DNA of 64,000 bases from Escherichia phage P896. The translations under genes were made by a program, and so were the position numbers. The DNA is taken from the sequence record OL451225.1; one strand, 5' to 3'. Under the pieces are notes generated by a model. That model saw only the letters and a program-made list of their open reading frames with translations, ran no database searches and was not told where the DNA came from. Each line of letters starts with the position of its first letter. Positions within the stretch are counted from its first letter, which is position 1. Positions 16,378 through 50,695 of the stretch are shown here, piece after piece.

Positions 16378-16425
16378 TTTCTTTTCTCGCTTAGTTATTT
16401 GGGGTATCCAAAGGACCTAGACCCC

Positions 16426-16449
16426 ATTATAACATAAAATTTTTAAAGC
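16426..16449 (-). promoter_or_regulatory. Candidate MotA-dependent middle promoter
   Basis: Minus strand cGCTTTA (MotA-box-like), then about 11 nt, then TATAAT. Confidence 0.3.
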
Positions 16450-16450
16450 G

Positions 16451-16666
16451 TTAATGAACGGTATGCACCTTGACATTAACGATAAATCGGTCAATGACTT
16501 CAGTCAGCGGAACGAATTCAACATAATATTCGCCCTTGTATCGTTCGTTGATATCATTGCGCAGTGCAGCCAGGTTGTTGATAAGAGCAGGAGACATATT
16601 CTGCCCTACCAGTTTCTGAAGCTCTTTATAAGCTTCTTCTTCAACTTCATGGTGTTTGTTATACAT
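16451..16666 (-). CDS. Hypothetical protein
   Basis: 71-aa ORF. Confidence 0.45.
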   Translation of the reverse strand: MYNKHHEVEEEAYKELQKLVGQNMSPALINNLAALRNDINERYKGEYYVEFVPLTEVIDRFIVNVKVHTVH

Positions 16667-16868
16667 AATGTTCTTCCAAGAAGGCTAAGAGTTCTGGAGC
16701 GGATTTAAAGATACCGCCATCAACCTTGTCTTCACTATCATAATCCATTACATCCAGGCCAATACGTCCATCAGTTAAAGGCCATACGCCGAAGAAAAAG
16801 CATTTACGTTTTTCAATTTCTTCGATTGTACGAAAAATCTTTTCGATATTATTCATAGGGGTTTCCAT
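16659..16868 (-). CDS. Hypothetical protein
   Basis: 69-aa ORF. Confidence 0.45.
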   Translation of the reverse strand: METPMNNIEKIFRTIEEIEKRKCFFFGVWPLTDGRIGLDVMDYDSEDKVDGGIFKSAPELLAFLEEHYV

Positions 16869-17572
16869 TTTCTACCTAGTTGCCAATCGGGGTGGCTCAA
16901 TCTAGGGTCATTTTCATCGGTGGTAGAAGATTTCTTGCCTGAAATATGGATAAGCCATTTTCTAGACTTAGCTACTCTTGAATAATTGGCTTTTGCCTCA
17001 TCTGAACGAATCTTACCTTTGTTCGATTCAGATATTTTATTGCCCCATTCAATAATAGCTTCTTCACTCATAAAATCTTTTACATTTTTACCGTACACTG
17101 GATTATTTTCGCCTTTAAATGAATTACCATTTTTAAGGCGGCTTTTTTTGGATTTAAGCCCACTACCAGGCAATCTCTTGCCTTTATTCCATGGTATAAC
17201 ACCGTTTTTGTATCTTTGCTTTTGTGATTCTGAAATTTTTAACGAAGTTTCGGGACTCGAGTTAACATTAATACGATTTTCATTAATGTACTCCCAACCT
17301 CCTTCTCCACCGGGCTTCAAATTGTAATTAGTATCCAATTTTATAAATTCTTTAGTTACTAATTCGGCTTCTAAATCATATGCTTCTTGTTTAGTTTCAA
17401 ATATTTTTATGATTTCTTTAATAAAAGAATCTTTACCATATTTTGATTCAGCATTTTTAAAAGCTGTACCGGAACCTAAATAAGAATCGTTTTCTTCCAA
17501 GGTCTTATGAACCCCTATATAAATTTTATTATTAACCAAACATGTAGTTTTATATACAGTATATTTTTCCAT
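16853..17572 (-). CDS. GIY-YIG homing endonuclease (Seg-like), free-standing
   Basis: N-terminal GIY-YIG module (YTVYK...NNKIYIGV); C-terminal basic repeats (IPWNKGK, NPVYGKN) typical of Seg-type DNA-binding regions; likely start is the second ATG (MEKYTVYK), preceded by GGAGGUGA. Confidence 0.75.
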   Translation of the reverse strand: MEKYTVYKTTCLVNNKIYIGVHKTLEENDSYLGSGTAFKNAESKYGKDSFIKEIIKIFETKQEAYDLEAELVTKEFIKLDTNYNLKPGGEGGWEYINENRINVNSSPETSLKISESQKQRYKNGVIPWNKGKRLPGSGLKSKKSRLKNGNSFKGENNPVYGKNVKDFMSEEAIIEWGNKISESNKGKIRSDEAKANYSRVAKSRKWLIHISGKKSSTTDENDPRLSHPDWQLGRKWKPL

Positions 17573-17581
17573 TAGAATCAC

Positions 17582-17611
17582 CTCCATAGATATTTATACT
17601 TATCTATGGAG
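17582..17611 (-). promoter_or_regulatory. Hairpin sequestering the endonuclease RBS, with an embedded late promoter (TATAAATA at 17591-17598)
   Basis: CTCCATAGATA-N8-TATCTATGGAG perfect inverted repeat; the 3' arm contains GGAG and the first AUG; TATAAATA lies across the loop and the start of the 3' arm. Confidence 0.55.
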
Positions 17612-17619
17612 ATTTCTAA

Positions 17620-18838
<1,219 letters not shown>

Positions 18839-18842
<4 letters not shown>

Positions 18843-19321
18843 ACACCAAGCTCCTTATAAAGTTCTTCGCGACAGGTTTTAAGGATTTTACCAGTTTCAT
18901 AAGCTGCACTTTCAGAAACATCACCAAGTGCAGCGGCAGATTGCATTTGTCCATGGCGTTTAGCTGCATATTCAAAACTTTTCACCAATTCACGAATACG
19001 TTCTTTTTCATTGTACTCTTCAATGAATTCAGGGTATTCCCAAACAGGTCGCATCATACGATACCAATGCTGAATAGTAATATAATTACTTCCATCCAGA
19101 TTAATAATTTGCGAAGGCTTAATAGACCCTGGGGCATAAAAAGTTACCTGTCTTACTACATCAATACCGTCCACCATAGCCCAAGCAAAATCGAAAGTTG
19201 CCTTCTTTTCAATTGGTGTGCTTGCACAGGACCCTAATTTTAAGAGCTTTTGTAATACAGGAGATTTAACACCTGAAATGTATTCAGGATTAGCTACAAA
19301 AGAATTGTCACGTAAAGTCAT
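18839..19321 (-). CDS. Hypothetical early protein (about 160 aa)
   Basis: ORF with GAGGAAA Shine-Dalgarno and its own early promoter; the track ORF 18839..19438 is an upstream over-extension. Confidence 0.5.
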
Positions 19322-48958: not shown

Positions 48959-49075
48959 TCAAAAGAAATAGTTAAAGTAAACACGCACATGGTCAATCAT
49001 AAAAACAATTGGGAAAATGCTCAGGACAACAAACAGTACAAACATGTTCCAAATGGCTTTAAGTAACTTTTTCAT
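48959..49075 (-). CDS. Small membrane protein (38 aa)
   Basis: MKKLLKAIWNMFVLFVVLSIFPIVFMIDHVRVYFNYFF; GGAGA Shine-Dalgarno. Confidence 0.35.
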   Translation of the reverse strand: MKKLLKAIWNMFVLFVVLSIFPIVFMIDHVRVYFNYFF

Positions 49076-49100
49076 AATCATCTCCAGTAGTTGATAGGTT

Positions 49101-49132
49101 CATTATACTACAACCACCGGAGATGTACACTT
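49101..49132 (-). promoter_or_regulatory. T4 early-type promoter
   Basis: Minus strand GTGTACATC-N16-TATAATGAACCTATCAACTAC. Confidence 0.45.
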
Positions 49133-49704: not shown

Positions 49705-49738
49705 TTTATTCTCCAGTTTGGTAACTCAGTATGGAATC

Positions 49739-49770
49739 ATTATGCACTGACTCCATACTGATGTACACTA
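49739..49770 (-). promoter_or_regulatory. T4 early-type promoter
   Basis: Minus strand AAAAAGTAGTGTACATC-N-CATAATGATTCCATACTGAGTTAC. Confidence 0.5.
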
Positions 49771-49778
49771 CTTTTTAA

Positions 49779-50144
49779 TTAATTGTGCATTTGTTCTTTA
49801 ACTTCTTTATATGCGCCAACTGCATTCACGACCCCAGTAAAATCTGCAGTCCCACGATAGAGATAGAAAGCAATTTCAGTCAGGTGGTAGACTTCAAATT
49901 CTGAAAGATAAACGATAACGTCATAATATGCAACTTGGCCCTGGACTTCGTTGAATACCACATCAAAAATTTCATGGGTTGGAAAATTGATGTTGTTGTT
50001 TTTGAGTGCTTGAATAAGAATTTGTTTGATGTTGTGAGTAGTAACGTGTTCCATGATAATGTCCTCATTTGTTGGTGTGAGGACATTATTCCATAGTTGG
50101 TTCAGCTTGTAAACCGGTGATAGGGAAATTTTTCTTCTGAACAA
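49779..50144 (-). CDS. Hypothetical protein
   Basis: 121-aa ORF. Confidence 0.5.
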   Translation of the reverse strand: MFRRKISLSPVYKLNQLWNNVLTPTNEDIIMEHVTTHNIKQILIQALKNNNINFPTHEIFDVVFNEVQGQVAYYDVIVYLSEFEVYHLTEIAFYLYRGTADFTGVVNAVGAYKEVKEQMHN

Positions 50145-50695
50145 GAACGGAGGTACCAGCCATCCCCTTGTGACTTCTGCACAAGACCAGACTCAGGAAC
50201 GAAAGCACCAGGTCCAGCAAGGAATTTTGGTTTAAATCTATAACCTTTGAGAGTCTCTTTTACATCGAGCATAATCATAAGGTCAGCAAGCTTGTGTTGC
50301 ATAAAAGGACCAAGATTGACCCCGTAACCATGCGGATAATCGCCCTGGTGACCAGTATGCACGGATATCCATTTGGAACCGGACTGATGAGTCTTGACTT
50401 CAATTCTTACGCCTTCTTTCGAAACTACATCAAATGCAAAGGAATAAGGATTATCGTAATCTTCATCACCGCCGCATAAAAAACCGGAGGTCCATTTGGC
50501 AATAGCTTGTTCAGCCATTGTGGCCACCATACATCTTTGCATGACTTGCTCACGGTCCTGACCTGGGTCTTTACGCAATGAATACCTGGCCGTGTCTACA
50601 ATCTTCTGCAGGGATTCAGGGGTTAAGTCTTCCTTCGTATAAAGAAAGGAGGGCATCTTTTTCAGATGCTCCCATGTTTTACTCTTCTGAATCAT
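50102..50695 (-). CDS. Hypothetical protein (possible denB / endonuclease IV position)
   Basis: 197 aa; lies in the ndd-rIIB interval where T4 carries denB; identity not verified. Confidence 0.3.
   Translation of the reverse strand: MIQKSKTWEHLKKMPSFLYTKEDLTPESLQKIVDTARYSLRKDPGQDREQVMQRCMVATMAEQAIAKWTSGFLCGGDEDYDNPYSFAFDVVSKEGVRIEVKTHQSGSKWISVHTGHQGDYPHGYGVNLGPFMQHKLADLMIMLDVKETLKGYRFKPKFLAGPGAFVPESGLVQKSQGDGWYLRSCSEEKFPYHRFTS

Follow-up and report, generated by a model that had tools for sequence, protein, structure and literature searches.

A free-standing Seg-type GIY-YIG homing endonuclease gene beside pseT in Escherichia phage P896, with a leader hairpin that contains a putative late promoter

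The pseT-cd.4 region and its endonuclease

In Escherichia phage P896, a Gaprivervirus, a stretch of 64,000 nucleotides (nt) from record OL451225.1 (hereafter the window) contains a free-standing gene for a Seg-type GIY-YIG homing endonuclease (239 aa plus stop; 16853..17572, minus strand) between pseT and cd.4, at the spot held by cd.5 in T4 and DK-13. The upstream neighbour, pseT (17620..18525, minus), encodes polynucleotide 5'-kinase/3'-phosphatase (Pfam HAD_PNKP, 6e-56, and AAA_33, 7e-21; 96-97% protein identity to PseT of SP18 and EAWsc9) and is an early gene in T4. The downstream neighbour, cd.4 (65 aa; 16659..16856, minus), matches PHROG 2360 (7e-37), aligns with its counterparts, and is annotated as cd.4 in SP18 and JS10. 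The endonuclease gene is co-oriented with both neighbours, and all features of its leader lie on the same strand; the gap between pseT and the endonuclease ATG measures 47 nt, while the ATG of cd.4 overlaps the endonuclease stop codon as CTATGA. Relative to the empty-site phage EAWsc9, the excess amounts to ~765 bp in the alignment. Judged from its sequence, this insert is probably a selfish cassette, consisting of a leader and the endonuclease gene and switched by a hairpin together with a late promoter. The pseT-adjacent endonuclease is of a kind already known and is annotated in GenBank as a homing endonuclease, its regulatory logic is known, and the finding leaves current understanding unchanged.

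The open reading frame (ORF) as listed spans 16853..17587 (minus), but its likely true start is the ATG at 17572 (MEKYTVYK...), because this start is aligned with the N-termini of all orthologues and with GenBank protein UHS65164.1 ('homing endonuclease', Escherichia phage P896), to which the 239-aa product is an exact match. The original prediction had placed the gene at 16853-17611 without giving a strand; the gene itself is real, and its position is refined here to the minus strand with a start at 17572. A lookup of the exact 239-aa protein for encoding contigs returned none on record. At the upstream border, the last 21 nt of pseT form a variable tract, GTCGCCGCGGGCGATTTTTAG (17620..17640, minus), which differs from the alleles lacking a homing endonuclease gene and from the HNH-bearing alleles, and which travels with the cassette. 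The 3' end of the cassette, ATGGAAACCCCT (16857..16868, minus), recurs in the alignments at the 3' end of DK-13 cd.5, and the native cd.4 ribosome binding site (RBS) is probably retained in it. Both neighbours are intact and collinear with those of gene-less relatives, and an Rfam scan of 16400-18900 revealed no family and no intron. Within the window, this is the only Seg-type gene.

The assignment to the GIY-YIG superfamily relies on several profile and sequence matches. Pfam GIY-YIG (PF01541) is found at residues 3-72 (E=5e-7; 30.3 bits, cut-off 22.6) with the motifs YTVY...KIYIGVH, Pfam SegE_GIY-YIG and NUMOD3 give weaker matches, and PHROG 314 ('homing endonuclease') matches at 2.5e-43, while TIGR01453 ('group I intron endonuclease') scores below its cut-off (33.3 vs 56). 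In blastp comparisons with the T4 proteins (NC_000866), the best match is SegB (41% identity over 137 aa, residues 4-140; 4e-31), followed by SegC (45%; 2e-29), SegE (43%; 3e-26), SegD (47% over 89 aa, residues 3-91; 2e-24), SegA (6e-18), and SegF (1e-8); no match was obtained for SegG, and those to I-TevI and I-TevII were not significant (E 0.09-0.6). The GIY-YIG module and Seg identity, originally read from the translation alone, are thus borne out by the profile match and by the similarity to SegA-F. Orthology to SegD, a label carried by the copies of PNJ-9 and of Providencia phage, was considered and rejected: SegD covers only residues 3-91, SegB, SegC, and SegE score higher, and the locus is pseT/cd.4, not genes 23/24.

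Two parts can be distinguished in the protein. The N-terminal catalytic domain (residues ~3-140; 17153..17566, minus) comprises the Pfam match at residues 3-72 and the SegB match at residues 4-140, and is homologous to SegB, SegC, SegE, SegD, and SegA. Tyr4, Tyr7, Tyr18, Gly20, Glu68, and Asn84 are invariant among the orthologues; Glu68 and Asn84 (the latter within YNLKPGG), invariant in seven of them, are aligned with the Glu and Tyr-Asn of the T4 Seg proteins and of I-TevI in a MAFFT alignment of low identity, which makes them candidate equivalents of Glu75 and Asn90. The basic C-terminal half (residues ~141-239; 16856..17152, minus) is a presumed DNA-binding part with NUMOD3-like repeats: the NUMOD3 profile scores 20.8 bits against a cut-off of 20.4 with no single stretch passing, and the basic repeats are seen by eye. 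By blastp, this half has no significant match to the C-terminus of any T4 Seg or I-Tev protein; it is conserved among the pseT-linked orthologues and specific to their lineage. A sequence search of the PDB with the endonuclease gave no match at E<=1.

The leader hairpin and the candidate late promoter

In the RNA sense, the 47-nt gap reads UAG-UUAGAAAU-CUCCAUAGAUA-AGUAUAAA-UAUCUAUGGAG-GU-GA-UUCUA-AUG. Its centre is a perfect inverted repeat of 11 bp, as originally described, with an 8-nt loop: the 5' arm CTCCATAGATA (17601..17611, minus) holds the anti-Shine-Dalgarno CUCC, and the 3' arm TATCTATGGAG (17582..17592, minus) holds GGAG of the Shine-Dalgarno (SD) sequence together with an in-frame AUG at 17587, which is unlikely to be used as a start codon. 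Folding extends this core to a hairpin of 20 bp (13 bp, a 2-nt bulge, and 7 bp; 17571..17620, minus; -22 kcal/mol when isolated). In the extended stem, the anti-SD arm GUUAGAAAUCUCCAUAGAUA pairs with the SD sequence GGAGG (17581..17585, minus; 8 nt upstream of the ATG at 17572) and with the A and U of the start codon. That the stem includes both the SD and the first AUG, as described earlier, stands, with the qualification that the triplet at 17587 is probably not the start codon.

The leader hairpin is well beyond chance expectation. Perfect inverted repeats of at least 11 bp with a loop of 3-12 nt occur at two loci in the window, compared with 0.15 in dinucleotide shuffles. Folding of the leader in its 101-nt context yields -31.6 kcal/mol (z = -5.3), none of 200 shuffles being as stable, and the 55-nt window containing the hairpin ranks 14 among 25,578 windows of both strands; by these predictions the RNA structure over SD and AUG is a stable one. 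The hairpin belongs to the cassette, because empty-site relatives, in which pseT and cd.4 are joined as TTTTAATG, have no hairpin at the join. An intrinsic terminator of pseT was dropped as a candidate function, since a scan of 16400-18900 found no intrinsic terminator-like site.

An exact T4-type late promoter box, TATAAATA (17591..17598, minus), is located inside the hairpin, as had been proposed; it takes up six loop positions and runs two nt into the 3' arm, ending 18 nt before the ATG. From the usual distance between box and start in T4 late promoters, late transcription is predicted to begin at ~17585 (+/-2 nt; 17583..17587, minus), within the 3' arm. The predicted late RNA would carry a leader of ~13 nt starting at or next to GGAGG, and at the sequence level the box is placed so that this RNA lacks the 5' arm. 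In the corresponding models, the mean unpaired probability over positions -13..+3 is 0.21 for the long RNA and 0.62 for the late RNA; identically treated T4 controls rise from 0.25 to 0.49 (I-TevI), from 0.33 to 0.88 (I-TevII), and from 0.13 to 0.41 (segB). The box-to-ATG distance of 18 nt is common to the P896 endonuclease gene, T4 I-TevII, and the late holin gene t of P896 (42118-42797, plus; Pfam Phage_holin_T, 5e-68), where TATAAATA likewise lies exactly 18 nt upstream of the ATG. Within P896, the holin gene can be taken as the reference case of a short late leader that works.

This arrangement closely resembles known T4 devices. Hairpins that sequester the RBS and contain a late promoter have been described for I-TevI, I-TevII, I-TevIII, segB, and Aeh1 mobE, and translational hairpins also for the T4 genes e, soc, and 49 (PMC2988022; PMC3014915); the original appeal to the regulatory logic of I-TevI and seg genes is therefore well founded, and the geometry of I-TevII is identical when folded alike. 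In the I-TevII and I-TevI leaders, the read-through RNA of the early and middle periods holds the SD in a hairpin, and an internal late promoter gives rise to a short translatable RNA (PMC2988022), as appears to be the design in P896. The I-TevII leader, CCTCGTATAAATATGAATACGAGGTGAAACGATG, shares with P896 both the 18 nt from the end of the box to the ATG and a predicted late leader of 13 nt, while the I-TevI leader, AATAAATACTTC...GAGGTATTTATG, is nearly matched by that of the orthologue from Ent31, AATAAATACCTCC...GAGGTATTTATG. In contrast to I-TevI and I-TevII, the P896 gene is free-standing, outside any group I intron, and its protein has no detectable similarity to them beyond the GIY-YIG motifs. 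T4 SegB (and SegC, SegE, SegD, and SegA) is likewise free-standing between genes and has a related N-terminal catalytic domain; segB also has a comparable SD-sequestering hairpin and a predicted late promoter. None of the T4 seg genes, however, holds the pseT/cd.4 locus, and the C-terminal half of the P896 protein has no T4 counterpart. Aeh1 mobE and T4 e, soc, and 49 use the same T4 device, in which pairing of the RBS blocks late functions on long early RNA, but belong to other protein families and loci.

Several other hairpins are found in the window. The only other perfect inverted repeat of at least 11 bp with a short loop (50056-50089; 12-bp arms, 10-nt loop) is located at the junction of the ORFs 49779..50144 (minus) and 50102..50695 (minus), with -18.7 kcal/mol on the minus and -20.8 kcal/mol on the plus strand. 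A GC-rich double hairpin at 1196-1255 (-33 kcal/mol on the plus strand, the minus strand also being stable) is the most stable local structure of the window and looks like a bidirectional terminator. Two further, strong hairpins on the minus strand, at 49071-49130 and 49716-49770 (-24.8 and -25 kcal/mol; z -5.2 and -6.4), both begin with AAAAAGU(A)GUGUACAUC and have UAUAAU or CAUAAU within the loop; in the first, GGAGAUG immediately ahead of an AUG is paired. By their sequence they look like promoters of the sigma70/T4-early type (GTGTAC, 17 nt, TATAAT) inside SD-sequestering hairpins, and, if so read, they would represent the promoter-inside-hairpin trick with an early promoter.

Site polymorphism and footprints of transfer

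The flanks of the cassette are 98-100% identical to those of Shigella phage SP18 (Gaprivervirus) up to ~16850 and from ~17650, and the site between them is polymorphic. When occupancy was classed by the span of the match, with one representative per class checked by annotation, the 34 distinct relatives listed comprised ~18 empty sites, seven with cd.5, seven with a MobE-like gene, and two with a GIY-YIG gene. Empty sites occur in EAWsc9, where the pseT-cd.4 join reads GACTTTTAATGAAT, in JS10, and in many others. The cd.5 family (a 66-aa ORF in DK-13; Pfam T4_Y13H) corresponds to the arrangement in T4, where cd.5 overlaps pseT and no endonuclease is present, in agreement with the earlier view that T4 lacks an endonuclease beside pseT. 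The GIY-YIG gene is present in P896 and in the Mosigviruses PNJ-9 and WFbE185. Only one of 371 matching records spans at least 80% of the P896 region, and among the matches to the PNJ-9 region two records carry the gene, while ~149 are at least 90% identical in the flanks. The cassette is thus missing from most close relatives, and its distribution in Gaprivervirus and Mosigvirus is sporadic.

The MobE-like endonuclease gene of SP18 (locus L003, 1982-2741) and VR25 (locus L006, 2012-2737), the relatives nearest in backbone, lies on the opposite strand and runs at its 3' end into the final ~87 nt of pseT; a separate TATAAATA precedes its ATG by 26 nt, and Pfam recognizes only NUMOD3 in its product. 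A DNA-binding domain shared by the GIY-YIG protein and the MobE-like protein of SP18 was rejected, as the two have no sequence similarity. Intronless homing with co-conversion, as well as different endonuclease classes aimed at one gene, has been described in the literature; as summarized in PMC2988022, SegH/mobC and Hef/mobE represent different classes at one locus (Sandegren et al. 2005). The pseT/cd.4 site is likewise occupied either by a GIY-YIG gene or by an unrelated MobE-like gene, each with its own late promoter box. The pair at the pseT site differs from SegH/mobC and Hef/mobE in that its members lie on opposite strands, the MobE-like gene overlapping the 3' end of pseT.

A trace of transfer is found in PNJ-9, which matches the empty Mosigvirus TH58 block by block at 100% identity, with a single tract as the exception. 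This foreign tract starts ~40 nt before the end of pseT, spans the endonuclease gene, and extends ~90 nt into cd.4; within cd.4 it agrees completely (100%) with the P896/SP18 type and to only ~50% with TH58. Such a tract is the expected trace of co-conversion during homing from a Gaprivervirus-like donor, and the case fits the intronless homing with flank co-conversion of the T4 Seg enzymes. Between P896 and PNJ-9, the endonuclease genes have ~90% nucleotide identity, compared with ~73% for the pseT genes (summed from the alignment). The original hypothesis of a mobile gene had been made dependent on its absence from some close relatives or on a sign of mobility; both were found.

The 3' end of pseT differs consistently with the state of the site. 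Gene-bearing genomes have a pseT end of the form ...GTCGC..GG.GA.TTTTAG, gene-less genomes one of the form ...GT(T/A)(A/G)(A/C)C.CATGG.GA.TTTTAA, and the identity of P896 pseT to that of SP18 falls only in the last-21-nt tract. As the last ~20 nt are distinct in all gene-bearing alleles, they point to a possible target/immunity polymorphism at the pseT 3' end. A possible later stage is represented by Klebsiella phage EI (locus L008, 1501-2214), in which the Seg gene is fragmented into at least two annotated short coding sequences (119 aa and 51 aa) and is recovered by tblastn in four pieces. This copy still has an I-TevI-like leader hairpin and, by its sequence, appears to represent the decay stage of a homing cycle.

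The pseT-linked lineage and the alternatives

Full-length relatives of the endonuclease were found by tblastn and by an alignment-based scan of IMG/VR, whereas a search of IMG/VR with the single protein found no locus. They fall into 11 distinct orthologue lineages with 36-92% identity, from at least six genera and from IMG/VR contigs, and in each the gene directly follows pseT. Besides the Mosigvirus copies, these include Karamvirus Ent31, EnC07, and KMB20 (75% protein identity), Marfavirus EI (67%), Gualtarvirus PSTRCR_127, PSTRCR_121, MP1, and PM2 (58%), Ishigurovirus ZPAH1 (39%), and the IMG/VR contigs L015-17, L018, L019, and L033 (36-46%). Neither PMC2988022 nor a full-text literature search (pseT, homing endonuclease, and GIY-YIG) yielded a description of a pseT-adjacent Seg, and the comparison defines a Seg lineage tied to pseT that is without description in the literature searched.

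A hairpin over SD and/or AUG is present in 11 of 11 lineages, with unrelated inner stem sequences, and in seven of them TATAAATA or the I-TevI-type AATAAATA is located in the 5' arm or the loop. Two designs can be recognized. In the first (P896, PNJ-9, WFbE185, L015, L018, L019, and L033), the junction motif UUAGAAAUCUCC pairs with GGAG(A/G)UUUCUAA, and the inner stems are formed by AUAGAUA, UAAAGC, AUAAUGAA, and ACUAGCAUUAAAGA; the outer stem of L033 shows one compensatory double change from G:C to A:U. In the second (Ent31, EI, and PSTRCR_127/MP1), the late-promoter octamer itself constitutes the 5' arm, (A/T)ATAAATACCTC pairing with GAGGTATTTATG, a layout very close to that of the T4 I-TevI leader. 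The leaders thus provide a clean comparative example of the textbook late-only translation of phage homing endonucleases by means of a promoter-bearing hairpin. The motif TTAGAAATCnCC right after the pseT stop (junction 17609-17640, minus, in P896; loci L007-L011, L015-L019, and L033) is kept in all pseT-linked Seg cassettes, even where it lies outside the SD hairpin, and repeats the final 12 nt of pseT imperfectly in inverted orientation. More speculatively, it might be recognized by a protein, act as an operator, or belong to a switch that depends on ribosomes terminating on pseT. The start region of the endonuclease genes also resembles the native pseT-end junction GGnGAyTTTTAATG, L033 being equal to TH58 at 13 of 14 positions.

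Taken with the T4 precedents, these features suggest the following course of events. The endonuclease gene would be carried along in the early/middle pseT-cd transcription unit, and the read-through RNA would fold into the 20-bp hairpin, the anti-SD arm right behind the pseT stop pairing with GGAGG and AUG; we propose that the nuclease is silent early because its SD and start codon are paired in this way. Late in infection, RNA polymerase with gp55 would initiate at the loop box TATAAATA, and the resulting RNA, beginning inside the 3' arm with a ~13-nt leader and without the 5' arm, would be translated. The enzyme would presumably cleave the gene-less alleles of co-infecting relatives at or near the pseT 3' end, or in cd.5, and double-strand-break repair would copy in the cassette plus flanking markers ('intronless homing').

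Some observations weigh against this interpretation. On the side of the protein, the alignment reveals no clear equivalent of I-TevI Arg27, the Seg proteins having H-x-T or GSG at this position; hhalign of the orthologue profile with I-TevI covers only the first 22 residues with a non-significant probability of 7%; and the single-sequence AlphaFold2 (AF2) model has a mean predicted local distance difference test (pLDDT) score of 36 and is unusable for checking the fold. On the side of the leader, 13 nt with the SD at the extreme 5' end is short, and the substitutions in PNJ-9 and WFbE185 weaken the stem (-11 and -15 vs -22 kcal/mol) and are not compensatory; as the closest orthologues weaken the stem, support for the structure comes from the distant comparisons. 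The box is mildly enriched in the window (10 copies vs 4.3 expected; three of 100 shuffles reach 10), and four distant orthologues are without the exact octamer. Because of this background, TATAAATA alone is weak evidence, and it is the position and conservation of the box that carry weight.

That background leaves room for the box being a chance AT-rich match, single copies of which can be fortuitous. The gene would then be promoterless, always damped by the hairpin, and expressed as a read-through trickle, much like the seven T4 free-standing endonuclease genes that have been called promoter-less cassettes (PMC2988022). This is highly improbable: the octamer is unchanged among P896, PNJ-9, and WFbE185, whose adjacent stem bases differ, TATAAATA or AATAAATA in the seven lineages is always found in the 5' arm or loop, and I-TevII and the holin gene have an identical spacing. 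The hairpin might alternatively be chiefly an element for the 3' end, stability, or processing of the pseT mRNA, or a DNA palindrome for a protein such as an autorepressing endonuclease, with an incidental occlusion of the RBS. The hairpin takes in the final base of the pseT stop codon as its first, the adjoining TTAGAAATCnCC is conserved irrespective of the SD hairpin and imperfectly mirrors the pseT end, and I-TevI provides a precedent by binding an operator that overlaps its own late promoter (PMC2988022). We nevertheless consider such a primary role very improbable, given that the scan of 16400-18900 found no terminator-like site, that gene-less relatives do without a hairpin after pseT, and that the stem covers SD and/or AUG in every orthologue despite differing inner sequence, which fits selection on RNA pairing and not on a fixed protein-binding sequence.

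It is also conceivable that the gene is a relic (fixed, domesticated, or inactive), kept for a late promoter into cd.4-cd, for the cd.4 RBS, or as a nuclease against competitors or defences. Such a state would agree with the constancy of the locus across very divergent genera, with the strong full-length conservation, with the presence of the gene in all four Gualtarvirus-type genomes retrieved, and with a cassette whose stop exactly overlaps the cd.4 start and which keeps a cd.5-derived RBS. A relic appears unlikely, however, in view of the sporadic distribution in Gaprivervirus and Mosigvirus, the greater similarity between genera of the gene than of its flanking genes, the co-conversion tract in PNJ-9, the decayed copy in Klebsiella phage EI, as a homing cycle predicts, and the intact motifs in common with the active SegB, SegC, and SegE. 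A mobile cassette with a late-switched leader is the probable interpretation.

A more far-reaching proposal, which is doubtful at present, is that the pseT-linked Seg genes constitute an old, locus-faithful lineage that has repeatedly invaded the pseT 3' end in at least six genera of T4-like phages, rivals the unrelated MobE-like gene for this site, and drives the exchange of the pseT end, cd.4, and cd.5 between genera by co-conversion. The four alternative states of the site and the inter-genus co-conversion tract in any case provide a convenient natural system for endonuclease competition and for marker exchange beside an anti-defence gene, as pseT is a tRNA-repair (anti-anticodon-nuclease) gene. 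By analogy with SegB, which according to a recent report promotes the amplification of adjacent anti-defence tRNA genes (PMC13096335), the pseT-linked Seg might, where defences exert pressure, favour amplification or sweeps of the pseT module.

The upstream side of pseT is variable as well. A 199-aa ORF is located there in P896 (18839-19438, minus; no Pfam match at E<=0.01), and the gene content between pseT and the spanin genes pseT.2/pseT.3 differs among SP18, EAWsc9, DK-13, VR25, and the Mosigviruses, which makes this interval a second variable spot.

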